Made by a program: the position numbers and the translations under genes
DNA from: a virus
Virus genome (UHGV): UHGV-1596829
Length of the DNA stretch: 16,562 bases
Direction: 5' to 3' (one strand)
Shown here: in pieces, positions 1 to 16,328 of the stretch
Layout: the number at the start of each line of letters is the position of its first letter
Numbering within the stretch: position 1 is the stretch's first letter
Notes under the pieces: model-generated
Database searches by the model: none
What the model was told of the DNA's origin: nothing
What the model saw: only the letters and a program-made list of their open reading frames with translations

Positions 1-262
1 TGTAAACCGACAGGTCAGCTGTTTTGCGAGCGGCAAAGGCACGGTTGACGATAGCAGCCATCTGGGCACGAACCAGCAGGCCGGAGCTGTTAATCTGGCC
101 GTTTGAGCCGTTCAGCAGGCCGTTCTGTACAGCGCTGCGCAGGCCGGCTGCGGACCAGTCGGTCGGGAAATCGGTAAAGTCTTCGGGCGAGGCAGCGAAT
201 GCATTCGTTGGCAGGAGCATAGCTCCTGCCAAAAGCATCGCAAGGGTACGTTTTTTGTTCAA
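1..262 (-). CDS. Secreted protein of unknown function, N-terminal part only (continues beyond window start); probably chromosomal flank or separate cargo
   Basis: Minus-strand TTG start at 260-262 preceded by AGGAGG (271-276, 8-nt spacer). Translation MNKKRTLAMLLAGAMLLPTNAFA|ASPEDFTDFPTDWSAAGLRSAVQNGLLNGSNGQINSSGLLVRAQMAAIVNRAF has a classic Sec signal peptide (basic N-region, hydrophobic core, AFA cleavage motif). GC is about 57%, well above the adjacent AT-rich segment. The listed plus-strand ORF 24..338 is taken to be its antisense shadow. Confidence 0.5.
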   Translation of the reverse strand, partial: MNKKRTLAMLLAGAMLLPTNAFAASPEDFTDFPTDWSAAGLRSAVQNGLLNGSNGQINSSGLLVRAQMAAIVNRAFAARKTADLSVY

Positions 263-305
263 GTATATTTCCTCCTTGTCGTTAGACTGGGCTAACTATA
301 CCGGT

Positions 306-333
306 AAAAATTTTCCTTTCCATAGGAAAGGAG
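306..333 (-). terminator. Putative intrinsic terminator-like hairpin (9-bp stem, 3-nt loop, followed on the minus strand by AAUUUUUA)
   Basis: Inverted repeat ttcctttcc-ata-ggaaaggag at 313-333; on the minus-strand transcript the hairpin is followed by a short U-tract. It sits about 45 nt upstream of the signal-peptide gene start and could insulate it from prophage read-through. Confidence 0.25.
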
Positions 334-345
334 CGTAACCACAAT

Positions 346-365
346 GAGTTATCATACGCTAACTC
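346..365. repeat. Dyad-symmetric 20-bp motif GAGTTA-N8-TAACTC, copy 1
   Basis: gagtta tcatacgc taactc; the half-sites are exact reverse complements. A second copy lies 132 bp downstream at 478-497. Confidence 0.6.
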
Positions 366-477
366 ATAAGTAGGTAATAAAATACCATAAAGATTTTGTG
401 TTGTCAAATCCTGATATTTACAGGAAAGAATGGCCGTATCACATAAACAACACAAAAAGTACACAAAATCCTGCAAC

Positions 478-497
478 GAGTTAGAATAAGCTAACTC
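478..497. repeat. Dyad-symmetric 20-bp motif GAGTTA-N8-TAACTC, copy 2
   Basis: gagtta gaataagc taactc; same half-sites and same 8-nt spacing as copy 1, and flanking bases are also similar (caaYGAGTTA...TAACTCM). A related GCTAACT also occurs at about 291-297. Confidence 0.6.
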
Positions 498-603
498 CAA
501 ACATGTTTTTTAATAAAAGAAAAATTTTTTGTATGTGCGATACATATTGTATACAGCGGCAGGTGGTGTTTTATTTTCAGGACATTTGGACAGGAGGAAT
601 ATA

Positions 604-1200
604 TTATATAGGTATATATAGAGTGTACAAATTTCCTGTAAAAATTTTTTGAAGAATAAATGATATCGCAACAATAGCTATCGCAGATATGATTGACCTA
701 TATTTATGACTTATCATCATCGCAATACAAAAAACAAGATAGAAATAAATTTCGTAACTTAAAGTCCATGCAGTTATTATTAGACTATAACCATAAAATG
801 GGGCATTTTCAGTTGGCCGCAACTGAAGAAACAATAGTGATTTTTTGATATTATCAATATTAAACCAAAGAGGAACTGACGACTTATCCATCATGAAGAA
901 GTGAGTAGCAACAAGGCTAAAAAGGAAAAAGCTTAATAAATAAACAGGGTATAACCTAAAGAATCGCTTAATGATAAATTTGGCGCATACAAAACTCTCT
1001 TTTTTTTCTGTTGCTAACGCGATGATAAAACCGCTGATCACAAAGAATATATCAACACCTATTGCTCCATTGTAAAACAGAAGATCACCAAGATTTTTCT
1101 GCACGTAAACATCGTTCAGGTACACATTCATATGTCCAAGAACTACCAGCATTGCAGCTATCCCACGCAGTGCCTGTATTGATTGTATTTTGTACGCCAT
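604..1200 (-). CDS. Acyltransferase family 3 membrane protein (O-antigen/LPS acyl- or acetyltransferase type), probably 3'-truncated
   Basis: 198-aa translation starts MAYKIQSIQALRGIAAMLVVLGH...FFVISGF...RFFRLYPVYLL, the typical N-terminal signature of Acyltransferase_3 proteins, with several predicted TM helices. Family members are usually about 330-400 aa, and no continuation is seen in any frame below 604. The segment is very AT-rich (about 30% GC) and sits directly after the tailspike, the same position as oac in Sf6. Confidence 0.6.
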   Translation of the reverse strand: MAYKIQSIQALRGIAAMLVVLGHMNVYLNDVYVQKNLGDLLFYNGAIGVDIFFVISGFIIALATEKKESFVCAKFIIKRFFRLYPVYLLSFFLFSLVATHFFMMDKSSVPLWFNIDNIKKSLLFLQLRPTENAPFYGYSLIITAWTLSYEIYFYLVFCIAMMISHKYRSIISAIAIVAISFILQKIFTGNLYTLYIPI

Positions 1201-1259: not shown

Positions 1260-3443
1260 TTATGATATAGGGATAGCATGCCATTCATTCGTACTGGCAT
1301 CAAGACATGTCCATCCGTAGTATTTATCGATCAAAGATGGGCTGTCGTTCTTAACGAAATCACCTCTTTTTGATACGCACTTGTTTCCATATCGCCCATA
1401 AGGATGTGTATTTAGACCAAAATCAAGGTATTTGAAGCCTACGACGCTTACATTCTCAGGCTTCGGTATGAAAGAGATATATGACGCGGCAACAGTATTA
1501 TTATTAGAAATTGTAGCCCCCTCAAAATTATCCATATCTATCAAAGCTGCAAATTCAGTTAAAACTGAATTGCTTCTGAAAATGTTATTTGTAATGGTTG
1601 GATATAAAAGGGTGTAACCAAGATCCCTAATCCTTATTGTCACACCGATCAGTGTATTATTATCAATAACCGGATATTGTCCTGCCCATACCAGGTTAGG
1701 GAAGTCGTCAGGAACCTGCACATAGTTTCCTGTAAAGCGCATGCCAACCAGAGATTGGTTGGACATAATAGGTGCCGGGCAATCAACGATATGATTGTTG
1801 CTGAATGTTATTCCTCGTCTGATCGGAGTACCAATATTATATTCCCTCATCGCATCCGGCCCACCATGAAACACATTACCAGTGATAAGAAGATTGCTCA
1901 ACCCGCCTGCTGGCTCATCGTCCACGCCACCTGAAACCAAAAGAATATGCGAAGAATCACGCTCACCAGTACTGTATGACTGATTATTCGAAATGGTTAT
2001 GTTGCTTGCACTTCCAATTTCTACAAAAATTCCTCGTGATCGCCTACAATAGTTATCAGCAATCAAACACGTGTCCATATAAGACCCTGGTGTTATACAT
2101 GATTGAATAGCTATTTGGTCGTAGAATTTATTTCCAATAGCGACAACATTTTTTGTGTATGTTGTTGGCGCAAAAGCCTCACCAAACGTGTGCCACTCAC
2201 GTCCGTTATACCACACCTCATTTCTACTGAATTCAGCAAAATCTATTTTACGAGAAAGGAAACAGTAGTTCGTGACATACTTGAAGAAGTTGTCATTTAC
2301 ATAAATATTTTTATTTGTTACTGTTGCATTCCAGTTATCTGCTTTAACAAAATATTGGCTTGCATTTACCAGATTATGATTTATGTATAACTTATCACAT
2401 CCTTCAGCAACTATCCCATACCACCACTCACCTTGTTTATGCTGTGTATCAGCTTCATTTATACTGTAATCAGTAAAAAGCCAATTCCATTTAAACCCTT
2501 TTATTTGAATATTATTGCATCCATTTAGAAAGAACACAGTTCTTTCTTTATATTCATCGTGGTAGGTGTCGATATTTACATCTTTTTCTGCATAAAAAAG
2601 TACGTCATCAATTCCGTCTAAGACAAATGATGCCTGAGTGAAGATATTAAACTTGTCGTGTGTTTGCACACCTGTTGTGAAGCCACATTTAATGGTACTA
2701 CCAGCGTCAGCTCTGCATGCTGTCTTTAAAATGGATGCTAGCTTGATCGCCGCCGTCACAGGTACATCGGCAGCATTTTCACCTGTGACGTCATGGCCTG
2801 CCCATGAGGTTAAAATATCAGATCCGTTATACGACCTCACCCAGCATCCCGATCCGCCAGCGTTAGCTTCTCCCGTTCCCGCAAGGAAAGCAGCGAGCTC
2901 AGCATACGAACCATCCCACGGAACTGTGGGGCTGAATATGGTGATACCGTTGTGCTGAGATTTAGGCATGCTGGCATCCCAGTAAAACTGCCCGCCGCCA
3001 AAGTTGGTTCCTGGTACGTATCCAATTACATTTAATGTGTGATTCCCAGCAGGCTCGCTCATTAAGGTATGGATGTCAGGAACATTCTCCATTCGCTGGC
3101 TAAACTGATCGGGATCATACTTCAGCACATTAGGAAAATAGAACTGCTGCGCACCATACGCATCATAAACAGCCATAGAATGGCCTTGCACAGTTACGAA
3201 TTTGGCAATCTGTCCGTTATATACAGGGTAACCAGCAGCGTTAATGATTATTGGTTGCGAAACGGGAATGTGAGAGCCGCCTTCGTTCTCCACATAAACC
3301 TGAATTTGGTTTTCAGGATTTACCGGGTCCGTGTCAATTTTACCGATATAAATTTTACCATTGGCTACGGCTTTAAAAGAACGAGCCATAGTGAAGAGTT
3401 GCGAAGGCATCGATACGATCACATTGGCTGTAATGTCTGTCAT
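1260..3443 (-). CDS. Tailspike protein: P22/Sf6/HK620-type N-terminal head-binding domain fused to a distinct right-handed beta-helix receptor-binding/glycanase domain
   Basis: 727-aa ORF. The first ~115 aa ([54 protein letters not shown]...VLKYDPDQF) match the conserved tailspike head-binding domain. The rest does not match P22, Sf6 or HK620 receptor domains as I recall them but has beta-helix-like repeats ([32 protein letters not shown]) and lower GC. Preceded by GGAG 9 nt upstream of the ATG. Confidence 0.9.
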
Positions 3444-3501
3444 TTAATTTGCTCCAGATACAATGAATCGCCGCAGCGTGGCCACGGTGAATTTTGGGCA
3501 T

Positions 3502-3524
3502 AAAAAAACCCAGCCGAAGCTGGG
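3502..3524 (-). terminator. Rho-independent terminator after the gp16-like gene, upstream of the tailspike gene
   Basis: On the minus strand: CCCAGC-UUCG-GCUGGG (perfect 6-bp stem, plus 3509-3524) followed by U7 (plus A-run 3502-3508). Confidence 0.6.
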
Positions 3525-3574
3525 TAGTTGCGTTGGTTATCTGTCAGTAGTTATGTGCTTATTTAATTATTTAT

Positions 3575-5419
3575 CTATTGTTCTGCTGTAATTTGGCTTG
3601 AAAGTATAGGGCGTATCGCATTTGCAGCATTATTTAACGCTCTTTCATAAGCTGGCGTTCCTGCTTTGGTGTTTGCCAAACGAAGAAGCATATTCCTTGC
3701 GGCTTTGGACTCATACAAACGCATCATTGCACCAAAACCAGCCTCAAGCCCCATTGATACACCAAGAGTCGCAGTTGCGCCAATCGTCCTTATCCTGTTG
3801 GCTTGCGATTGCCCCGTCTGAGTTACTACATTTGCGGTGTCTGACCTTGCTGTTTGCTGTAGAACTTCATGAAGAGCATCAAGCTCTTTCATGTGCTTTC
3901 CAGAAAAAATAGTGTTGTAAATTTCACCGCCTGACTGAGATTTCAGCTTATTAACTTCAGTGATGAACTTGGCTGGAGAGTCACCGGCCTTTTCCGCTAT
4001 TTTGCTGACGTAAGCTGCACGCATAGCATCTTTCCCTTTATCATCCAGTGCGCTCCAGATTCGTTTCACGTCAGATGGTTTTCTGCTTAATACAACGGTA
4101 TTTATAAGTTCAGGACTGGCTTCACTGCTTGCCTTGTTGAGCTTGTTAGCAATGTTTTTATTAAGCACCTTATTATAAACGTTTGCATAATCGGAATTTG
4201 CTTTAAGGTATTTTGCTGCGTCTGATGCACCGAGGTTTTTAGCAACTGCGTTACGAAGGTCTTTTGACATTGCATTCTCTACCATATTGGTAGCTGCTTT
4301 TGCCTGGTTGGGGAAGACCATAGCATCTCCCTGAACATTAGATCTAAATGCTGTTCTGTGCTGACGCAAGAGATCAAACGTAACATCCAAATCAGTTGCA
4401 GGGTTTGCTAATTCTTCACGTAGGTTACGCAAGGATGTAAGCAGGCTTTGATTGGCAGACGTCCCAAGCCGTTCCTGTCTTACGATCGCTGTATTCAGAG
4501 CATTCATGGTATTTGTGGTATCAACTGCGGCATTACCCATTTTATTGGTGACGTCATTGATAACAGCGCCAGCGGCATCCTTCCGCCCCCTTAACGTGGT
4601 GGTCAGAGATTTCACCACATCATCAGGGTTATACTCACCAAAACGGTCAAAATAATTGCTTACCAGTTTACTACGCGTTGCATATTGCTCCGCTCGCTTT
4701 GAGCCTGTCCCGAGCAAAGCACCCTCGGCATCCTGAGTAAGGCCACGAGTGAAAGCATTTTTCGGCGGGATAACATCAGATGTCATTGGTGTCACGCCCA
4801 TCGATTCTGATGTGGCAATTTTCTTCGCCACTTCTGGCGCAATATCACCTTTTATAGCCGTTATTCCACGCCCTATTCCCTTTGCTGCTGCGGAAAGAAC
4901 ACCCTGAGCGGCAAGGTTAACTCCGGCATTTTTGGCTGCATTTTGTGCGAAATCGCCTTTCTGATTTGCGGCCTCTGCCAGTGATCCAATAGCCATGCTT
5001 CCTGCCGTTCCAACTCCTGGAACTAAATACCCGCCAATTGTTTCTCCAGCTTGCGCATAAGGGTCTGTTGGTCGATCTACTGGACGATAAACATCATCCA
5101 AAACCTTTGGGCCACCAAGCCCCTGGCTGATTGCATTAATCAGACTTGCACCACCCTGCAATACGTCAAATGGTATGTTTACCAGACCACGACCAGCCTG
5201 TTCAGCAATTTGCCCTGCACTTTGACCACCAGTGAGCCAATCGCCAGCTTGTTGCATCAATGATGGTTCTTCACGTGCTGGTTCATTATTGGCCTGATTA
5301 ACTGTTTGTTGCTGAACAGCCTGACCAGCAAAATACTCATCAATGGCGGTGCCAATATCTTCGGTGCTCGTACCATTAGGAAAGGTAAATGTCTTACCGT
5401 TTGCAGTTACTTTCATCAT
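3575..5419 (-). CDS. Ejection (DNA-injection) protein, P22 gp16-like
   Basis: 614-aa ORF in the gp16 position and of gp16 size (last of the 7-20-16 ejection-protein trio); start overlaps the gp20-like stop by 4 nt (translational coupling). Confidence 0.88.
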
Positions 5420-6786
5420 TCCACCGTAAATTGAATGCCTGATTTTGACGTGTAGCTACCTCCTGCTGATTGCTGAGTAGGCGGCTGTTGCATTGATGAT
5501 TTCTTCCCTCCATTACCGACATTAACGTTATATTGCTGGTTGTAATTGTCGGTATATTGCTGAATGTCGCGCATTGATTGTTGCAGTGCTTCAGGGCTTG
5601 AGAAATCAACCTGTGGCATACCTTGAAAATACATCTTTGCTTCTGCAACGGTGTTGATACCGGATGCCCCCATGTCTCTGGCTGCTGCAATGCCCTGATT
5701 CTGCATCTTTCCTTGGATTCGCTGTGCAGCGTTGTATAGTTTCCTCTGATCACCACCAGATGCACGGCTACGAATATCTGCACCAAGAGCAGGAGAACCT
5801 GAAGAGCCTGTAATGCCAGTCATGAAGCCAAGATCGTCAATTGATGCACCAGAAATTGCATCAAGATCTTTCTTCATTGCGTAATTCTGCGCGCTTGCTG
5901 CCGATGTAGCCGGAGCGGCAATAGAGCCAGCAGGGACGCGAACCATATTCCCCTCGTTGTCGATACCTTCGTAGAACGCATTAGCCCCAGCGCCGTGAAG
6001 CTTCCCGCCTACCGTTACAGTTCTGCCATCTGCTAACTGAACTGTACGCTCATTATTCCCAACCGACCCTTTCATTGATGCTCTCTGCATCGATAAATCC
6101 TGACCGCGCATCGTGATATTCTGACCACGCGCTGTTAGCGCCTCGCCAGCCTGATTGCTGCGGATTGTCTCTGCCAGTCTTCCTCGGTCAATCTCACGAC
6201 CAGCCATTTTGTCCTGAACATTGAAGTAATCAATAGGACCAAGAGCAGCCATTCCAAGGTGATCAACAAACTCACCAAATCCTGAAGGATTCTGCTGATA
6301 CATCTGAGCAACGTTATTAGGGTCAACACCGACGCGAGTCAGTTCCTTGGCGTTATTTTGCAGCCATGATTGCATTGCTTCTGGAGACGATGCCGCAAGA
6401 CGAGCGCCAGCCGCTAATGTACCGATAGAATTACGCTGGTCTTCATCAATGAATCCCATGCCTTTACGAACGGATTCAATCTGGTCTGGATATTGAGTAG
6501 CCAACTGACGCAAAGCACCGCGATCACCAGACGCATAAGCATTAGCGTATGCCTGCTGAAATTCTTTCTGCCGCTGAGCCTGCTTTTCCTGCTGAAAAAC
6601 ACCCGCAATACCTGAAAGACCTTGCAAGGCCGTCAGTCCAACATTGTTAGCGCCTGAACGCTCAATATCATTGTTCTGCCTGATAAGCTGAAGCGTATTT
6701 CCGATGTCATTTACGCTAGGGGCGTTTGAGTTGACGCCACCGATACCAGCCAACAATCCGCCGTTTGTTCCTTGCCAAGTAGCCAT
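5416..6786 (-). CDS. Ejection protein, P22 gp20-like
   Basis: 456-aa ORF beginning [10 protein letters not shown]..., Gly/Ala/Gln-rich like gp20; position between gp7-like and gp16-like genes. Confidence 0.88.
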
Positions 6787-6795
6787 GATTACCCC

Positions 6796-7488
6796 TTAAA
6801 ACAACGAGCCAAGCAATCCGATACCAGCACCAATGCCAGCGCCCCAAGGCGTTGATGCTCCCAAAAGGCTGGCAAGACCTGCACCGGCAATCGCACCAGA
6901 CGTGCCACCGCTAATTGCAGTCTGAAGACTTGATGGTTTATTGGCATTAGCAGCGGCAAGAGCTGCGCTTTGCTGTGCAATGCTGCTCATGTTGTTGGCG
7001 TACGTCTGCCCGGCGTTTGCCTGACCTTGCAGCGCACCAAGCCCAACGTTTGCCAGATTGTTGTAATTGCTCATCTGATTTGATAACCAAGACTGACCGA
7101 GTGTCGGCGCGATCGTAGCCAGTTGATTGCTTGTGGCTGTCGAACCAAGTCCACCCGTCGCCTCCGCAGCAGCAAGACTCTGGTAACGCGCCTGCCCTGC
7201 AAGGTCTTTATACTGCTGAGAGTTGTAATACTGATTAAGTGCCTGCCCCTGACCTTCTAAACTGGAAAGGTTCTGAAGCTGGTTAACATACTGCTCCGCA
7301 AGAGGCGTGAATGGAGCAAGGTTTTTCATGATCGTCTGCCACTGCTGATTTTGCAGGTCTGCAGCATACTTCTGGGCTTCTGCTGCATACTTTGCGCTTT
7401 TATCAGAACTGCCACCTTTCCCGCCTTTTTCAGGGCAATAAGGTTCCTCGCCGCGCAGTTTTCTGCCCAGCTTAAATGCATATAACAT
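6796..7488 (-). CDS. Ejection protein, P22 gp7-like
   Basis: 230-aa ORF starting MLYAFKLGRKLRGEEPYCPEKGGKGGSS, closely matching the remembered P22 gp7 N-terminus and length; Gly/Ala-rich C-terminal tail. Confidence 0.9.
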   Translation of the reverse strand: MLYAFKLGRKLRGEEPYCPEKGGKGGSSDKSAKYAAEAQKYAADLQNQQWQTIMKNLAPFTPLAEQYVNQLQNLSSLEGQGQALNQYYNSQQYKDLAGQARYQSLAAAEATGGLGSTATSNQLATIAPTLGQSWLSNQMSNYNNLANVGLGALQGQANAGQTYANNMSSIAQQSAALAAANANKPSSLQTAISGGTSGAIAGAGLASLLGASTPWGAGIGAGIGLLGSLF

Positions 7489-7490
7489 GG

Positions 7491-7949
7491 CTATCTCCCG
7501 TGATTCAGGAAGTCGATTAGTTCTTCGCGTGTGGCGCTGTAAAAAGTCACGTCATCCACGCCTTTGAAGTATTTCTTGATGGTTCCTACACGCTTAAGGC
7601 CAATCATTGCGCAGTACATCTGACCGTGTCGGAATTTGCGTGCAGCGAACGATGTTACGCACTGAACGGTGGTGTTAGTCAGAATGTATCGCCAGAACGC
7701 CAGCCCAATTTCCTTGCTGAAGCCGCGAATCTCTGGCAGGTACATGGCGTGGCAATCTAATGTCAGCGGCTGAATCTCCTGATAGTAAACAATGCCACCA
7801 AACTGACCGTGCACGTTAACCTCAAAGTAACGGCATTCAGGCTTGTAGTCGTACCCATCACCGTTGTTGCTACCGGCGATAATGTCAGGGTGATTTCCGA
7901 CTGCTTCGATCAGGTCGATGTTTCGCGTTTGTTTGAACTGAATCATCAC
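7491..7949 (-). CDS. P22 gp14-like virion assembly / DNA-ejection-associated protein
   Basis: 152-aa ORF in the conserved slot between the needle gene and gp7, overlapping the needle stop by 4 nt. Assignment is mainly by synteny. Confidence 0.65.
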
Positions 7950-8794
7950 TGCTCCGCGATTATCTTGATGGTTGTGGCAGTAAACGCCGCACCATTTGAC
8001 TGAATGGCTAACGTACTGCCATTTGTGGCAAGAAAGCCGTCTTTATCCACACTGAAGAACGTAGCTAACAGGATGTTGTCGGTTGTTGTCGCCGCATTAC
8101 GACTGCTGACCTGTGTGTCAGGGACAGAGCCGGAAAAGGTTAGCTGCATTGACCTGTTGGCGGTTCCGCTGGGCCACGTCCCGACAATCGACAGCTTGAA
8201 GAACAAGGTTTTGTTCTCGTTGAACACAACCATCTTGTTGTTAACGGTGTCGAAGAATGGTGCCAACGTGCCGGATGACGGCGTGAGCGTTTTCAGCAGG
8301 CTAACAAGGTTGGTCGGCGCTGTCGGGATGGTTACTGATACGCCAGAGTAAACAACTTCTGACTTCTTGCGCGTAGTGGCATACTCCAGAGCATTAATGC
8401 GCGTTTCATGGTCTGAAACCTGCGATTCCAGCGACTGAACTCTGGTATCAAGCGACGCAATATCGCTTTCATTCTGAGCTATTCGTGTTTCATGGTCCTG
8501 AAGAGTTGATTCTGCCTGGCTGATTCGCTCCTCATGATTAACAAGCGTTGCTTCCGCAGCAGAAATTCGCTGCTCATGGTCAGCGAGAATCACATCCTGC
8601 TCATCGTTCCTGACCTGTGCATCATAAGCGCCCTGTCCGGCCTCGTTGGCCTTGTTAGCCACGTTACCAACATCAGTGCCCTGTGCGATAACGTAAAGCA
8701 GATACGACTGCGAGAAGATATTGCGTGGAAGGACTGATGTGTCGAGCCGTGCAGCCTGAATGATTACCGGCACATTGAGATTCGAATCCGCCAT
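7946..8794 (-). CDS. Tail needle protein (P22 gp26 homolog) with Sf6-type C-terminal knob domain
   Basis: N-terminus [43 protein letters not shown]...[11 protein letters not shown] matches P22 gp26. A central coiled-coil has repeating DHExRI units. The ORF is 282 aa versus 233 in P22, with an extra C-terminal ~130-aa domain as in the Sf6 needle. Confidence 0.9.
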
Positions 8795-10212
8795 TACTCA
8801 ATCCTTATCTGAGCGCCAGACAGAGTGACAGGTGACTTCGTGATAACGCGCAATTTGAAACCGATATTTTTCCTGATGCGCCCGACACGCTTCCACAAAA
8901 CACGTTTGTCGTAAATGAACGGTTCATTCTGTTCAATCATCTGCTCACGCCCGTAATTTATGCCGTCAGTGGTTGCAGAGAGGAACAGGCGGTCGGCGTA
9001 CTGAGCTACGCCAGTGGATGATTCCACCTCCAGATCGAAGCATCTGGCGTTATCCGCTTTGAACAGTGGAGTAAACAGCAGGTGTTCCTGTTGCTTGTCG
9101 TACTGGCTGCTGATGTCGAATTGCAATTTCCCGGTCACGGACTCCAGCTTATCACCGCACGTTATCTGATTGCCTTCGTAAATGAAGTCGATAGCGCGGT
9201 ACACATCGTCATACAAGCCAGTTTTCAACACACACCATTGCGGACCATTGGCGCTTGAAGATGCGTCGTACACGAGAACATGGCGCGGAAGGTGGATAAT
9301 CAGCAGCTCATGCGCATCAAATCGCAGAGACTCCATCACACCATCAGCCAGTTCATCAGCAGTGTAGGAGCGGAGAATTTTCTCAATGCTCGCGCTGGCG
9401 ATTGGTGACACCTGACCGGAGCCGATAATGTATACAGACGGCGCACCCGTTGCCGGATTGCTGATGAACGCATACGAATCAGCAAACGGCGTTTTGCAGT
9501 AAGTCCCGGCGATGCCTTTTTGCACCATCAGTGATGGCTGTGCGACATACAAAGCAGCACCAACGGTGGTTGCGCCAGTCAGGGAGAAGTATTCAATAGT
9601 CGATGAACCAAAGCAGACGATGAAGTCTCGCCATGTCCCGATACCGATGATGCCGTCCGGCTGAGACTCGGCACGATATTGTGCGCTGTAACGGTCAGGA
9701 TGCGATTCGTCTTCAAGGTCAGTGATAAACCATGAATCAGTGCCGTCTTTTGACCACGCATAACGCCCACGTAAGCGCGTAATGTCGCGAACCGAACCTA
9801 ACTCATACTGAGTGAATCCGCTATCTGCAGGCCAGTTTGAGACGGTTTTAACCGTGCCATCATAGCGATACTCTACCAGTTGACCATTAACGCCTACAGC
9901 CTGAGATGTCCGACCATGCGCCATTGATACACGACCACTTCCGGCAACATCACCGACTTCGCTTTCGCCCTTATACAGCTTGCCCCCACACACGCGATAT
10001 ACAGCACTCTGCGCCATGTTGTACTCGACGCCGCGCGATATACCGTTCACATCAGAACGTTTGGCAATGCCCGGGAATGAGCGAAGATATCCGCTGCTGT
10101 TAAGGATTTCTTTTGGTGTAGCCAGCATATTCACTGGCAGATAGTCGATATAGTCGGCGTTTCGGAAGTCTTTGCCGACACCTTTCATAAGCGGAAGTTG
10201 CTGAATCGGCAT
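8794..10212 (-). CDS. Tail hub / tail accessory protein, P22 gp10 homolog
   Basis: 472-aa [52 protein letters not shown]..., near-identical to the remembered P22 gp10 along its length. Confidence 0.95.
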
Positions 10213-10221
10213 TTATTCACC

Positions 10222-10683
10222 TCACGTACTCGGATCATCTTTCTCGATGTAAAACCGATTCCACGTAAACGCGCTTTTGTTACCACTACCGCGAGGCATG
10301 TCATTTCGCCGCTCAAGTGGTGGTATTTTGGTTAAAGCGATACAGATTGTCTGATATGCACTGTCAGCAGCGGTCAGGAGAGCGTCTGACGGCTGAATGA
10401 CGTTATCCATGCACACTTGCACAGCGAGCTTCAAAGCCACGCCATCATTTGCCCATGCAGGGATACCTGAATCATCGTCAGGTAACGGCATGATGCCGTT
10501 TTCTGTATCCGCAAACTGATATCCAAGCTCGATACCTTTCGCCTGCCATGCTGCCATCATGTCTTCGAGGTCATTAATGGCATCTTCAATTGCCTGAGGG
10601 TCAGCATCTGTCAACGTGGCATTGGAATACAGCCCAGCTTTTCGTAAAGCCTTTAGAACGAGATCACCCTTCGTTTTCGCCAT
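10222..10683 (-). CDS. Head-tail adaptor (tail accessory factor), P22 gp4 homolog
   Basis: 153-aa ORF, MAKTKGDLVLKALRKAGLYSNATLTDADPQAIEDAINDLEDMMAAW..., alignable to the P22 gp4 N-terminus; conserved position between coat and gp10. Confidence 0.9.
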   Translation of the reverse strand: MAKTKGDLVLKALRKAGLYSNATLTDADPQAIEDAINDLEDMMAAWQAKGIELGYQFADTENGIMPLPDDDSGIPAWANDGVALKLAVQVCMDNVIQPSDALLTAADSAYQTICIALTKIPPLERRNDMPRGSGNKSAFTWNRFYIEKDDPST

Positions 10684-10852
10684 CTTCTTCCGCCTTAGCC
10701 ACTTTTTGCTTCGTTGCGGTTTCTTCAGGAGTTTTTACCCAACCTTTTTTCAGGTGAGATTTAACTTCTTCGTCATCAACAATGATGTAATCGACAGCAA
10801 ACTGACCACAGGTGATCATGTTGCCAGGCTTATAGAGCATTGTTCGTGCCAT
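10664..10852 (-). CDS. Small acidic hypothetical protein (62 aa) between coat and gp4 genes
   Basis: ATG at 10850-10852 preceded by GGGAGA (10858-10863). Translation MARTMLYKPGNMITCGQFAVDYIIVDDEEVKSHLKKGWVKTPEETATKQKVAKAEEDGENEG; overlaps the gp4 start by 20 nt. The track's longer TTG-initiated version would start inside the coat terminator, so the ATG start is preferred. Confidence 0.45.
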   Translation of the reverse strand: MARTMLYKPGNMITCGQFAVDYIIVDDEEVKSHLKKGWVKTPEETATKQKVAKAEEDGENEG

Positions 10853-10863
10853 TGTCTTCTCCC

Positions 10864-10886
10864 AATAAAAATGGGGCCGAAGCCCC
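10864..10886 (-). terminator. Rho-independent terminator immediately after the coat gene
   Basis: On the minus strand, 6 nt after the coat TAA: GGGGC-UUCG-GCCCC (GNRA-like tetraloop hairpin, plus 10873-10886) followed by AUUUUUAUU. Confidence 0.55.
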
Positions 10887-10893
10887 ACCAAAA

Positions 10894-11781
10894 TTACTGC
10901 CCGGCAATAACGATGCCCGTATATTCAGGAACCAGTACAGAGCAACCGTACAGAGTGGTGAAACGCGCAGTGGTTACGCCTTTGATGTGGTCGAAGGCGT
11001 AAGACATGATCAGCGTAGCGCCCTGCTCGGTGGTTGCTGTCATTACCTGTGGACCCTGACCAGTCGGGAACGCCAGTTTGCCGTACATCAGCTCAACAGA
11101 ACCATCAGCCCAGAACAGGTTAGCCGGTGCGGCATTCTTGTTGAGAATGGTAATTGCTGCACCATTTGCCGCGTTAGCATCAACGTTTGCATATGGACGG
11201 CTGGCGACATCTGCGTTGTCAGGCGGCAGAATTTTCGGGGAGATAGTTACTGTCGTTCCGCTTACTGCCAGAACGCGGAATACCTGCGGCTGCCCGGTGG
11301 TGTCTTTGGTGATCTGGTGTACAGAATTCACGCCAGCAATGGTGAACGCATCGCCAACCTGCAAACCTTCAGCAGATACCGTAATGGTCCCCTGCCGGTT
11401 ATCCACTGGCATATCGTTAGCATCTTTCGCTTCAACCTTGTGCGCAGGTTCAGCCGCCAGCGTCAGGGAAGTTGCTGTACCCTTCGGAACACGACCAGAA
11501 ATATCGGTCTTGTAGCTATCGAAGGACGCAACCGGAGGGATCTGCGCTTTTTCGTATGCTGTCAGGGTTGCGCCCTGAGCATAGGCACGGTGACCAAGCT
11601 CGCCAGCAAGGTCTTTGTAGTTGAAGGGGTTCCAGAAAGAGCGGCGGTTGATACCCTGTGGTACACCAATCGCCGTCATGGTGGCATCAATACCTGCCGC
11701 ACAGTTCCACAAATCACGGCCCTGTGAACCAGTGGTTGAGTCAGCCATTGTGATCACGTTAGTAGCACGCTGCGTGACCAT
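10894..11781 (-). pseudogene. Major capsid (coat) protein, P22 gp5 family; 5'-deleted fragment lacking roughly the first 100 codons and its own start/RBS
   Basis: The translation aligns with P22 coat from about residue 100 to the C-terminus (e.g. ...YANVDANAANGAAITILNKNAAPANLFWADGSVEL... versus P22 ...[35 protein letters not shown]...). Upstream in the same frame, coat-like sequence stops near 11810 and stop codons follow. The gene abuts the truncated portal gene with no scaffold gene between. Confidence 0.8.
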
Positions 11782-11786
11782 GGAAA

Positions 11787-13496
11787 TCAGGTCAGAGTCA
11801 ATCTGTGCAGCTTCGGCGTTCCTGGTGGGATAAGTGCCAGCATGGAAAGTAACGACTTAACCGTTGCATCACGGCGAGTAGCGAACGACTGACCGACATC
11901 GACAGTCACTTCATAGTTACCCTGCGAAAGGTCGTTAAGCGCGATAACCTGCCCTGTCTGACGGTCAACCACTTCACCAGTCATCAGCGCCACGTCATCG
12001 CTGCCGTCCTCATTAACGATACGCATCGGCGTATCGCTGCCATAGACTTCACGCGCCATAGAAAGCCACACAACGCCAGCGCGACGCATAGATTTAGCCA
12101 TGTTGTCCATGTAGATATAGGACTGCGTGTCCATCCGGTTAAAAATGCTATCAACGGTATCAGTAGCGACGTTGCTCGGCATGTTCTCAAGCTGCGACGC
12201 ACCTGTAATTTGCTGAATAGCCGTTCCGGTGTACTGCAATAGCCCGGCAAGAGCAGGAGGCATTTGTGTCGGAGGTGTCCAGCCAGCAACCTGAGCTTCT
12301 GAAATGACTGTTCCGTTTTTGTCCTTCTTGCTGGTCATGGGAAGAACTGCAGGTCTTTTCTTATTCCTCTCTGCCCAGTGATTCATTAATGGACCGGGAA
12401 TGAAATCAACATCCACGATAGGAATGCCATCACCGCCCGCCTGAGTAGCGTTATCTGCAATCATGGAAACCATCAGGTTCTCAAGACGCTGTGCATCCAT
12501 CGCTTTTGCTGCGTGGCCTTCGATTCGTTCCTGATTATCAACAAATGAGCGACGCCCATATACCGGGATGAGAGGAATATGTTCGCCCGGAATACGCTTC
12601 GGTTCTTCCAGCCATTCAGCGCCAGACAGAAGGCCGCAATAAACGCGGCGTTTCTTCACCGTTCGCTCGCCAATCAGTTCGAATGCACCATCGGTCAGCT
12701 CGTCGACAATATCTTTGATTTGCTCTTCATCATAGATTGCCGTTTCTCCGCTAACAGGGTTGCGCCACGCCGTGAGCTTCACCTTCTCTATGCGAACTTC
12801 GTAGTAACGTCCAACATAGATGGCGTCAGGCGTTGACCAGTCATACTGAGTACCAGTGTCATCCCGAGAAAGGCTTGCCGCAATGGAATCAGGGTATTCA
12901 GCCTCGAACGCTTTAGGCGTCATGGAGAACATTTCCATAGCCCACATAGCATCAGAGCGGTCATATTGTTTGCTGTCCTGATCGAAGAAGACGCATGTCG
13001 CCGGGTCGTAAACAGGAAGAAGACTGATGCGTCGCTGCTCGTTACTCGGATCCATTTCATCTTCGTAATCAGCACACATGCGGAAACAACCGAACCCGCC
13101 CGTTACAGCATCATCAAATGCGTTATCACACGCTTCACCACCTGATGTTTCCTGATAGTCAGCGCGGAATTTGCCGTTCATCTTTTCGGCTAACGCTTCC
13201 GATGCCTTATCGTCCTTCGGCCTGAATTTAACGCTGATGCGATTCTGTCGATACTCGCCAATGATGCGATCACATTCACGGGCAATCTTATTCAGTTCAA
13301 AGCGCGGATAATGCTCAAACCTGCCTTCATCAAATGAGTAACCAGCGTTTGTGCTGCCTTCCCACTGTGCGCCGGATACCCGGACGAAACGTTGAGCCTC
13401 AATAATCTGCTTACGCATATCCTGCGTTGCTGACCAGGCATTATCAAAGTTGCACAGCACCTTGCGATGCCAGTCAGTCATCTTTTTTTCTGCCAT
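11787..13496 (-). CDS. Portal protein (P22 gp1 family), 3'-truncated; lacks the C-terminal ~130-150 residues
   Basis: 569-aa ORF with portal-core homology (PGEHIPLIPVYG versus P22 AGEHIPIVPVFG; ...LLSMLALIPPGTP versus P22 ...ELLGKTPQGTP). After GTP the frame reads 8 unrelated residues and stops; P22 portal is about 725 aa and Sf6 about 708. Confidence 0.85.
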   Translation of the reverse strand: MAEKKMTDWHRKVLCNFDNAWSATQDMRKQIIEAQRFVRVSGAQWEGSTNAGYSFDEGRFEHYPRFELNKIARECDRIIGEYRQNRISVKFRPKDDKASEALAEKMNGKFRADYQETSGGEACDNAFDDAVTGGFGCFRMCADYEDEMDPSNEQRRISLLPVYDPATCVFFDQDSKQYDRSDAMWAMEMFSMTPKAFEAEYPDSIAASLSRDDTGTQYDWSTPDAIYVGRYYEVRIEKVKLTAWRNPVSGETAIYDEEQIKDIVDELTDGAFELIGERTVKKRRVYCGLLSGAEWLEEPKRIPGEHIPLIPVYGRRSFVDNQERIEGHAAKAMDAQRLENLMVSMIADNATQAGGDGIPIVDVDFIPGPLMNHWAERNKKRPAVLPMTSKKDKNGTVISEAQVAGWTPPTQMPPALAGLLQYTGTAIQQITGASQLENMPSNVATDTVDSIFNRMDTQSYIYMDNMAKSMRRAGVVWLSMAREVYGSDTPMRIVNEDGSDDVALMTGEVVDRQTGQVIALNDLSQGNYEVTVDVGQSFATRRDATVKSLLSMLALIPPGTPKLHRLTLT

Positions 13497-13497
13497 A

Positions 13498-14913
13498 TCA
13501 ACCTACACCACAAGGAATTGAGTAACTGGAATAGTCGGGTTGCGCAGCCGACTCCGGGCAATGCATACACATCATCAGCGCATCAGCCAGGTTAGGAGAT
13601 GGAATACCGAGCTTCTGCTTCATTTCGACCTTAGTCATAAGCTCCAGCTTCCCGTTATTATTGAATTTGCGCTGAATCTGCGTCAGTTCTGCAAACAGCT
13701 TCTCCAGCATCTTCTCGCCTATCGCTTCTTTGTCGAAACTCAGCATGTCGTCGGGGTCTGCATACTCACCGTGGACAACCGCCCGATATGTCAGATACAG
13801 CCTGTCAGCCAGCGCGTAATAGAATTGCGCTCGCTTATTGCGGAACACATCGCCAATAGTGCGAACGTTGTCGCCCTGTACGACTTCATCAGCCCATGCT
13901 CCGGCCTGATACGGTGCATCTTCATCGAATGGCGATTCGCTGCCCTTAAACATCGTGGCGGTGATTTTCTTACCGGAGAATGCTTCCGTTGTCTGTCTGC
14001 GCAGCCCCGCACCAACACCATCACCATCCCACAGGTAGTGGTCAGCGCCGTCTTCAATCGCCAGCGAAGTAGCCCAGTCAGCACCCTCGTTGATATCCAT
14101 CAGCAGACCTTTGGCAATGCGCTTAACTACCGAACCGTGACGCGATGCGTAACCTTTAGCATCTGGCCCTGTATCTGATGGGTCATGCGCAGAAACAACA
14201 GCGCCTTTCGCTTTCCATCCGAGTTTCTTGTGCGCATCGGTTGCAGCTTCAAGCCATTCACGTTTGATGATTGCCATATCACTTGCGCTTACTGGCTCAC
14301 CAAGCCAGATGTGACGATACAGTGTCGGATTTCTGCGTTTGCACTCTTCCATCTCCAGACGGAGAACTTCAGGAAAGTGCGGGTTGTCGGTGTAGTTCAC
14401 CGTCAGCAGACAAATATCATCGGGAGGATTTACAACGAATCGTTGATAGGTATCGTCGAGGATGTTCTTAGGGTTGAAGCTCACCCATATTTCGGAGAAC
14501 GGCTTACGGATGGTTGGTATCAGGATATCCCATGATTCCTTCGTTACCGCTTCCGCTTCTTCCACCCAGCAGATATCAATGCCTTCGAGCGATTTAATCT
14601 TCGTCGGGTTGTTTTTGATGCCGTAGAACATGAACTCAGCATTCGTTCCGAGATGACGAATCATGGAACGCTGAATTTCAAACTCAGCCGTATACCCTTC
14701 ACGCTCTATGGTGTCTTCAAGCAGCCGGATTACCGAATCGCTGATACTGTTTTGCAGTTCACGAGCGCAGAGAATACGCACTGGCTGCCGACGCGCCGCT
14801 TCAACAAGCAGCCTCGCAATTGCCCATGACTTACCGCTACCTCGACCGCCTTTGGCGACTTTGTAGCGATGCGCCTCAATGAACGGTTCAAAGATAGGAT
14901 TAATCGTGGTCAT
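13498..14913 (-). CDS. Terminase large subunit (Sf6 gp2-type)
   Basis: 471-aa ORF, MTTINPIFEPFIEAHRYKVAKGGRGSGKSWAIARLLVEAARRQPVRILCARE..., with Walker A (KGGRGSGKS) and near-identity to the Sf6 large terminase as remembered. Start overlaps the TerS stop by 4 nt. Confidence 0.95.
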   Translation of the reverse strand: MTTINPIFEPFIEAHRYKVAKGGRGSGKSWAIARLLVEAARRQPVRILCARELQNSISDSVIRLLEDTIEREGYTAEFEIQRSMIRHLGTNAEFMFYGIKNNPTKIKSLEGIDICWVEEAEAVTKESWDILIPTIRKPFSEIWVSFNPKNILDDTYQRFVVNPPDDICLLTVNYTDNPHFPEVLRLEMEECKRRNPTLYRHIWLGEPVSASDMAIIKREWLEAATDAHKKLGWKAKGAVVSAHDPSDTGPDAKGYASRHGSVVKRIAKGLLMDINEGADWATSLAIEDGADHYLWDGDGVGAGLRRQTTEAFSGKKITATMFKGSESPFDEDAPYQAGAWADEVVQGDNVRTIGDVFRNKRAQFYYALADRLYLTYRAVVHGEYADPDDMLSFDKEAIGEKMLEKLFAELTQIQRKFNNNGKLELMTKVEMKQKLGIPSPNLADALMMCMHCPESAAQPDYSSYSIPCGVG

Positions 14914-15350
14914 TTTCCGAATAGAGTGCTCATCGGTGATGTTTCAATCTGAATTGCGCCGCCGTCTTTGCCTGTTAGCTCGTGATCAACCTTATCGCGC
15001 CATTTATCCTTCTGTCGGTTCTTAAGCCAGAAGATGGCGGCGGTTGTATCAGGCGGGTAATACTTCTCAAGCGGAGTTTCGACAATTCTGTTTTCAATAA
15101 CACGAATATCGATGTCTGGAGCCACGAAGCCCATAGCGCGTTGATAAAGACGATCACTAACTTCTGCATCAGCGACGGCCTTACCCTTTTTTATGGACTC
15201 CGAAAACTTAGGATAATCAAGCTTCCACTTGTTAATAGTTGACTCACTGACTTCAAAGAAATCAGCAAGTTCTGCATCGGTGTAGCCCAGCAAGCACAGT
15301 TTGCGTGCCTGTTCGGCATACGCCTCTTGATACTTCGTTGGGCGCGCCAT
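14910..15350 (-). CDS. Terminase small subunit
   Basis: 146-aa ORF directly upstream of and overlapping TerL; the N-terminal region looks like an HTH DNA-binding domain, and the C-terminus (...GKDGGAIQIETSPMSTLFGK) resembles the Sf6 small terminase tail as I remember it. Confidence 0.85.
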   Translation of the reverse strand: MARPTKYQEAYAEQARKLCLLGYTDAELADFFEVSESTINKWKLDYPKFSESIKKGKAVADAEVSDRLYQRAMGFVAPDIDIRVIENRIVETPLEKYYPPDTTAAIFWLKNRQKDKWRDKVDHELTGKDGGAIQIETSPMSTLFGK

Positions 15351-15842: not shown

Positions 15843-16328
15843 TTATTTCAGTTCGTTACCAGGCATTTCTTTTAGCTCTTTCAAATGACAACGATTGAGA
15901 CTAAACCACTCCCCGTGCGACCTATAGTTGTAATATTTTTGGTGCAATTTGGTTTCAAGCTCTCTATCGGCCGGAATCTTTGCAATTAGATTTAGCTTCC
16001 CACCACTCATGCGAGATATCTCTGAAATTCGTTTATTAACCCTGCGACTAAACCCTATTTTTGTTAGCCCACTATCTTCAGCATGCAGAACGTACACATA
16101 TGATTTTTGCGAAGCACTGGGTGCGACTTTGTTGTAATTAATCATGTCAAACATGAAGCCTTGCTTTAGCAAAGTTTCAAAAAAGATAGAATTAACACAC
16201 CCATTCCTTCTCAGCTCTGCACTTAGCTTGTCAATTTCCTCTATGATGTCGCCAGACCCCTTTCCACTTATAAGAAAATCTTGGTACATGCGACCAATTC
16301 TTGAGGTAATTTCAACAAAGTTATTCAT
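15843..16328 (-). CDS. T5orf172 / MUG113-type GIY-YIG-superfamily domain protein (accessory 'moron' gene)
   Basis: 161 aa. C-terminal half has the T5orf172 signature YVYVLHAEDSGLTKIGFSRRVNKRISEISR...ELETKLHQKYYNYRSHGEWFSL (GIY-like YVYVL, YIG-like KIGFS, conserved R/E, GEWF). AT-rich (about 38% GC) compared with flanking phage genes, preceded upstream by a terminator and followed by a 247-bp spacer. Confidence 0.7.
   Translation of the reverse strand: MNNFVEITSRIGRMYQDFLISGKGSGDIIEEIDKLSAELRRNGCVNSIFFETLLKQGFMFDMINYNKVAPSASQKSYVYVLHAEDSGLTKIGFSRRVNKRISEISRMSGGKLNLIAKIPADRELETKLHQKYYNYRSHGEWFSLNRCHLKELKEMPGNELK

Follow-up and report, generated by a model that had tools for sequence, protein, structure and literature searches.

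The portal of P22-type phages is needed for DNA packaging, and established P22 genetics holds genes 1, 8 and 5 to be essential for virion production. Procapsid formation in these phages requires both coat protein and scaffold, the latter also driving incorporation of the portal, and the crown and barrel domains of P22-like portals and their role have been reviewed (PMC5850374). Sf101 (NC_027398/KJ832078), a Lederbergvirus and serotype-converting phage of Shigella flexneri, forms particles and has a full 732-aa portal, a 297-aa scaffold and a 417-aa coat protein, annotated at positions 605 to 2803, 2894 to 3787 and 3806 to 5059, respectively. Its integration site is sbcB (PMC4159516). The stretch analyzed here, referred to as the window, comprises 16,562 nucleotides (UHGV virus genome UHGV-1596829), and we compare it with Sf101 and with other phages and prophages of the same type.

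Layout and origin of the window

Judged by its gene content, gene order and sequence identity, the window carries the late operon of a P22-like Escherichia coli prophage of the CUS-3/Sf101 type (Lederbergvirus). All long open reading frames (ORFs) of its E. coli part, which starts at about position 624, lie on the minus strand, and the genes follow one another in the order GIY-YIG nuclease, DUF2560, probable small terminase, large terminase, portal ORF, coat-like ORF, a 62-aa gene, gp4, gp10, tail needle, gp14-like, gp7, gp20, gp16, tailspike and acyltransferase. Sf101 shares the order terminase, portal, (scaffold), coat, 62-aa gene, gp4 and gp10, and also the sbcB integration locus, a 13-bp att core and an O-antigen acyltransferase gene beside the tailspike, but it differs in the receptor-binding part of the tailspike and in its cargo, gtrABC being present in E. 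coli JKHS016, the complete genome that carries the same element (see below).

The large terminase subunit (13498 to 14913, minus strand; 471 aa) is intact according to its ORF, the PGAP annotation and the Pfam match Terminase_3 on an identical Logan contig. The intact 146-aa gene at 14910 to 15350 (minus strand) probably encodes the small subunit, a function assigned by its position directly upstream of the large subunit, which matches that in Sf101-type phages. Downstream of the coat gene lies an intact 62-aa gene (10664 to 10852, minus strand), annotated as a virion structural protein in Sf101, and then the head-completion, tail and ejection genes (3575 to 10683), all on the minus strand and intact by ORF length, by PGAP annotation free of pseudogene flags and by Pfam matches on identical contigs. 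These are gp4 (10222 to 10683), gp10 (8794 to 10212), the tail needle (7946 to 8794), the DUF2824/gp14-like gene (7491 to 7946), gp7 (6796 to 7488), gp20 (5416 to 6786) and gp16 (3575 to 5416). The tailspike gene (1260 to 3443, minus strand) is intact as well, with a product of 727 aa that has a P22-type head-binding domain at residues 1 to 113 (Pfam Head_binding). A reading made from the letters of the window alone, hereafter the sequence-only reading, had taken the tail, ejection and tailspike genes to be intact, and they are indeed full length in the window and annotated as intact by PGAP.

The tail and ejection set is of the P22 type, identical proteins matching the Pfam families P22_Tail-4, Phage_stabilise, Phage_tail_NK, P22_gp7, Inj_translocase, Phage_P22_gp16 and Head_binding. 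Matches of the tailspike in the PDB were confined to residues 1 to 117, and the receptor-binding part (residues 118 to 727) had no solved homologue by sequence in this search. Searches of the window with Rfam and ARAGORN found no RNA family and no tRNA, respectively.

The far end of the window has a different origin. Positions 1 to ∼628 are 95% identical to Agathobaculum butyriciproducens DSM 100391 and find no counterpart in the complete E. coli genomes, JKHS016 included. The Agathobaculum match extends to position 650 and the E. coli match begins at 624, both containing AAATTTCCTGTAAAAATTTTTT (window 629 to 650), and past this shared AT-rich string of ∼22 nt the two parents continue independently of each other. 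The window is therefore a chimeric metagenome contig, joined at ∼624 to 650 within a single assembly through a string common to both parents, and its first ∼628 bases come from another organism. Horizontal transfer of Agathobaculum DNA was considered and rejected in view of the shared string and of the fact that the join cuts an otherwise intact acyltransferase gene. The 5′ part of this gene (O-antigen modification type; 624 to 1200, minus strand) is what the window retains of the 367 aa that are intact in JKHS016, and the 198-aa “acyltransferase” ORF at 604 to 1200 is an artifact of the join. The 87-aa Agathobaculum N-terminal fragment, which may resemble an S-layer-homology domain, had no Pfam match.

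A 1,852-bp deletion between the portal and coat genes

To map the region, window positions 10600 to 13600 (minus strand) were compared by BLAST with Sf101 and with the prophage of E. coli ZH063 and, by megablast, with 50,697 phage records. Among the latter, 11 Lederbergvirus genomes, including Sf101, CUS-3, Kapi1 and vB_EcoP-720R6, matched with 96 to 100% coverage and 93.7 to 96.6% identity. Each of the 11 aligned as two pieces spread over ∼4.85 kb, against 3.0 kb in the window, and has an annotated scaffold gene separating portal from coat. The closest intact relatives are the prophages of ZH063 and other O25:H4 E. coli, which are of the CUS-3 type and 98.0% identical over the 3-kb query; CUS-3-type prophages and phage CUS-3 itself (CP000711) retain the 1,852 bp that the window lacks. 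By identity and colinearity the module thus belongs to the CUS-3/Sf101 type, a membership by descent, as its portal-scaffold-coat set is not complete.

Compared to Sf101, the query is colinear apart from one clean gap of 1,852 bp. Query positions 1 to 1791 correspond to Sf101 501 to 2291 (portal side, 94.6% identity) and positions 1790 to 3001 to Sf101 4142 to 5353 (coat side, 98.7% identity), with a 2-base overlap. Both flanks align at an E value of 0, over 1.8 and 1.2 kb, so that a chance match is not an issue, and the ZH063 prophage gave the same gap. In a three-way alignment with Sf101 and ZH063, identity on the portal side is perfect up to ...CCACCAGGAACGCCGAAGC and on the coat side from GCTGCACAGATTGAC... 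onward. With these two genomes as references, the junction falls at 11811/11810 (minus strand), and the dinucleotide GC at 11810 to 11811 is common to both sides, a microhomology that may truly differ by a base or two, given that the deleted side is represented by relatives 94 to 98% identical. The lost segment comprises the final 170 portal codons, the spacer between portal and scaffold, all of the scaffold gene, and 112 codons from the start of the coat gene along with its ribosome-binding site.

The two colinear pieces confirm a portal-to-coat deletion junction where the sequence-only reading had placed one, and also its claim that no scaffold gene lies at the junction, that gene being wholly absent by alignment to Sf101. 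Its estimate of ∼1.6 kb for the loss was too low, and the few tens of base pairs that it supposed between portal and coat do not exist, since there is no filler and the codons it called unrelated are coat DNA read in another frame. The flanks abut directly, with no IS-like or foreign DNA at the junction. At the breakpoints of the closest intact relative, no longer direct or inverted repeats were found, the repeat pairs that do occur lying elsewhere. A GAAGC motif ∼30 nt upstream of the right breakpoint was considered as the deletion site and rejected, as the alignments show that another site was used.

The portal and coat remnants

The truncated portal ORF (11787 to 13496, minus strand; 569 aa) was delimited by translation, Pfam, alignment to Sf6 and P22, and PGAP annotation. 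It keeps native codons 1 to 562 of 732 (13496 to 11811). Since 1,852 is not divisible by 3, the portal frame then runs through 7 out-of-frame codons of coat DNA (LHRLTLT; 11810 to 11790) before it ends at a TGA stop (11789 to 11787). The sequence-only reading had the position of this stop right and the number of unrelated codons, given as 8, wrong by one. The Pfam family P22_portal covers profile positions 2 to 523 of 594, and the product aligns to residues 6 to 559 of the 708-residue Sf6 portal and 10 to 553 of the 725-residue P22 portal, both of which extend 150 to 170 residues beyond its end. Ending at the equivalents of Sf6 559 and P22 553, the protein has an incomplete helical crown and no C-terminal barrel. 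PGAP describes it as “incomplete; missing C-terminus,” and the 90%-identity cluster that holds it otherwise contains portals of ∼731 to 733 aa.

The coat remnant (10894 to 11811, minus strand) comprises codons 113 to 417 and the stop codon, as defined by alignment to the Sf101 coat gene and by PGAP, which calls it “P22 phage major capsid protein family, missing N-terminus” (918 nt). It is out of frame with the portal and has neither a start codon nor a ribosome-binding site of its own. Coat sequence had been supposed to resume at residue 95 to 100; it does so at codon 113, directly at the breakpoint. A mechanical 295-aa ORF (10894 to 11781, minus strand), apparent from the ORF list, the sequence and Pfam, opens at the internal coat Met123, 5 nt after the portal stop, and no Shine-Dalgarno sequence is visible before it. 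Its Pfam match, P22_CoatProtein, covers profile positions 127 to 423 of 423, and its 90%-identity cluster otherwise holds coats of 417 aa. The solved CUS-3 coat (8skg; 416 residues) matches the intact Sf101 coat from end to end, so that the 112 residues lost here belong to the folded capsid subunit. The corresponding N-terminal region of HK97-fold coats contains the N-arm, the E-loop and the beginning of the spine helix. The sequence-only reading had allowed that the two products might be full-length homologues of functional proteins; given the lengths of their cluster members and of the solved structures, they are not.

Occurrence of the junction

When 5,426 complete E. coli genomes were searched with a 201-bp probe spanning the junction, that of JKHS016 (GCF_038396505.1), from hospital wastewater in Japan, was the only one to match it over its whole length. 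The junction 39-mer, CCACCAGGAACGCCGAAGCTGCACAGATTGACTCTGACC, occurs identically in this genome and in four other public assemblies (SRR35196807, DRR089059, ERZ27262414 and ERR589753), which were made with different pipelines. Further public contigs code for proteins identical to the 569-aa and 295-aa products. The carriers differ by at most 1 or 2 single-nucleotide polymorphisms (SNPs) over 10 to 16 kb and, together with the window, fall into three haplotypes (the window, L004, and the pair L003/L009) distinguished at window positions 1856, 12698 and 14443. The recurrence of one junction in several assemblies and three haplotypes establishes the deletion as genuine and as passed on within a small lineage.

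One or both halves of the probe were present as separate places in 423 of the 5,426 complete genomes, at a median of two places per genome, and ∼390 complete E. coli genomes hold the module intact as an uninterrupted span of 4,853 bp, against 3,001 bp in the window. An exact search for the 39-mer found no copy in the viral contigs of IMG/VR or the metagenome contigs of JGI, a result that is compatible with a rare lineage but lends no further support.

The prophage in JKHS016

The JKHS016 prophage measures ∼37.8 kb, or ∼39.6 kb with the lost segment restored, and lies between sbcB and dacD. An exact copy of the 13-bp att core, CGTAATCGTGAAA, is found inside the 5′ end of sbcB, adjoining the tyrosine integrase gene, and a copy with one mismatch is found between the prophage and dacD. 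Integration thus follows the Sf101 pattern, with the integrase next to sbcB and the core at both prophage ends. At megablast-level similarity, the JKHS016 chromosome has one place that matches the portal/coat module.

Genes annotated without defects in this prophage include those for the integrase, an excisionase-like helix-turn-helix protein, recombination functions, sieB, the repressor, cro and cII, those for replication, the nin region, the antiterminator, the holin, the endolysin and a spanin-like lysis protein, and those for both terminase subunits, the tail and ejection proteins, the tailspike, the acyltransferase and gtrABC. PGAP/RefSeq flags the portal and coat remnants as partial pseudogenes and no other late gene, and the sole further pseudogene of the prophage is a homologue of the DNA polymerase III theta subunit gene.

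Origin and consequences of the deletion

We consider it very likely that a recent deletion of 1,852 bp by illegitimate recombination made this P22-like E. coli prophage defective through loss of its capsid genes. As the two ends share GC only, with no repeats at the breakpoints and no foreign DNA, we infer illegitimate recombination, microhomology mediated or end-joining-like, or replication slippage at the 2-bp GC, and not homologous recombination or a mobile element. Deletion by homologous recombination or through a hairpin was rejected because the breakpoints of the intact relative hold no repeat, and a mobile element or RNA gene at the junction was rejected on the empty Rfam and ARAGORN searches and the directly abutting flanks. 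The deletion looks recent, since the remnants carry no further lesions, the prophage has one other pseudogene and the carriers are nearly identical.

Having lost at least one gene that P22 genetics has established as essential for virions, the element is a defective prophage. Because P22-type procapsids need coat and scaffold and packaging needs the portal, it should be unable to produce virions by itself. From what is known of P22, we infer that without scaffold, full coat and full portal no procapsids would form and the terminase would have nothing to fill. Repression, excision, replication, lysis and lysogenic conversion (acyltransferase, gtrABC and sieB) should be unaffected, and a related helper phage could still rescue the element by complementation or recombination.

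That the junction is instead an assembly artifact, a chimeric join or a collapsed region of a metagenome contig, is not a hypothetical concern in a window that is demonstrably chimeric at its other end. Nevertheless, we judge it highly improbable. At the portal/coat join the two sides have no more than 2 bp in common, from which a k-mer graph could not have produced the join unless reads spanned it, and it is neither confined to a single assembly nor built on a k-mer shared by its parents. The comparison with related assemblies that the sequence-only reading had named as a check on mis-assembly tells strongly against it, the identical 39-mer being present in JKHS016 and in four assemblies from different pipelines, with carriers in three SNP haplotypes. 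An even less credible view, to which we give almost no weight, is that a short portal and a short coat are a natural, functional architecture in which the scaffold is dispensable or encoded elsewhere. In both remnants the reading frame stays open, with no internal stop, and a 602-aa chain of the P22 portal core (4v4k) is among the structure matches; the P22 portal core cut at residue 602, studied by Olia et al. in 2011, reportedly still forms rings in vitro. However, portal and coat are not fused in frame, the 295-aa ORF has an internal Met as its start and no ribosome-binding site, the cluster members measure 731 to 733 aa and 417 aa, and the 112 absent N-terminal coat residues belong to the solved 416-residue CUS-3 coat. 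Moreover, a single one of 5,426 complete genomes has this form, and the annotation of the prophage shows no scaffold gene at any other place.

The deletion could also have been kept because it is useful, either because the fragments poison superinfecting relatives or because the prophage lives on as a helper-dependent, satellite-like element. The rest of the late operon is intact, including the terminase subunits and the tailspike, the deletion-bearing prophage is present in several samples, and it is classical genetics that a helper can complement P22 mutants in genes 1, 8 and 5 in trans. Still, we regard this as highly unlikely, as there is no sign of selection, the form is rare (again 1 of 5,426 complete genomes) and its nearly identical carriers point to a recent, clonal origin. 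The lysis genes are intact, so that no pattern of domestication is seen, dedicated hijacking genes are lacking and translation signals are missing from the coat fragment. A recent, neutral deletion would itself be expected to persist in a few samples when the clone that bears it is circulating. In one specific form of the idea, which we hold to be very unlikely, the truncated portal (residues 1 to 562 plus LHRLTLT), the coat fragment or both would act as a dominant-negative poison of the invader's procapsid assembly, a superinfecting relative trans-activating the late operon of the prophage so that the fragments are made. Were this so, the deletion would be an assembly-interference defense, which would explain its persistence in a circulating E. 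coli lineage. Assignment to the phage satellites (PICI, P4-like or cf-PICI) was rejected, the element being ∼37.8 kb long with a full lambdoid early region and lysis, terminase, tail and ejection genes, and none of the satellite hallmark genes is annotated in the JKHS016 prophage.

The defective prophage that we favor resembles other enterobacterial ones in that morphogenesis genes were lost by a small deletion while immunity and lysogenic-conversion genes were kept. The classical cryptic prophages e14, Rac, DLP12 and Qin are heavily eroded. Unlike these, the present element is at a very early stage, with one lesion and the theta-homologue pseudogene. What we describe is ordinary prophage decay, and the lesion was already flagged in RefSeq and is in that sense already known. 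Prophage predictors should score the element as defective, and the 569-aa and 295-aa products, which have already entered Logan/ENA gene calls, should be kept out of protein databases as genuine variants. For following the E. coli clone that carries the junction, its 39-mer offers a convenient lineage marker. The locus shows cleanly and at base resolution how prophage decay sets in, and has little import beyond correct annotation.

Chimeric end of the contig

The first ∼628 bases of the window do not come from E. coli; they share 95% identity with a sequence of Agathobaculum butyriciproducens DSM 100391 (NZ_QEKJ01000005.1). An AT-rich string of ∼22 nt (629-650), common to both sides, links the Agathobaculum DNA to the prophage acyltransferase gene, and window positions 1-650 are the chimeric end of a metagenome contig. 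The acyltransferase gene product in JKHS016, a complete E. coli genome with the same deletion junction, is 367 aa long, and the open reading frame at 604-1200 (198 aa) is a truncated artefact of that gene.

Within the Agathobaculum part, positions 1-262 of the minus strand encode the N terminus of a protein that looks secreted (LNKKRTLAMLLAGAMLLPTNAFA...), with a GGAGG ribosome-binding site ahead of it. By eye this N terminus resembles an S-layer-homology domain; a Pfam search of the same fragment returned no match.

Genes of the late operon and other prophage features

The tailspike (727 aa; 1260-3443, minus strand) carries the conserved P22 head-binding domain at residues 1-113. For its receptor-binding part (residues 118-727), no solved structure was matched in sequence comparison, and the identical protein on the DRR089059 contig, another carrier of the deletion junction, has a precomputed Pfam match to PF27114 (Phage_tail_beta).

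At the junction, the internal coat ATG (11781) lies 5 nt downstream of the TGA stop of the truncated portal gene (11789-11787). The 295-aa coat fragment could in principle be translated at a low level through termination-reinitiation, even though its ATG has no visible Shine-Dalgarno sequence.

A gene for a 161-aa nuclease of the GIY-YIG/T5orf172 family (15843-16328, minus strand) precedes the DUF2560 and terminase genes; it may encode a free-standing homing endonuclease and has no relation to the deletion.

Besides the portal and coat remnants, the JKHS016 prophage contains a single pseudogene, a HolE-like homologue of DNA polymerase III theta that is interrupted by an internal stop and lies in the early-left region (JKHS016 877155-877436; positions 9156-9437 of the extracted prophage stretch L005). 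Outside the window, ∼1 kb between the antiterminator and holin genes has no annotated feature (JKHS016 890337-891359; 12998-14020 of stretch L003). The corresponding interval of lambdoid phages contains the late promoter with its leader and often also tRNA or cargo genes.

Haplotypes of the deletion carriers

The known deletion carriers differ at three single-nucleotide positions (window 1856, 12698, and 14443), at which they fall into three groups: the window itself, the SRR35196807 contig, and JKHS016 together with the DRR089059 contig. One haplotype is common to both Japanese data sets. These three positions serve as haplotype markers of the lineage.
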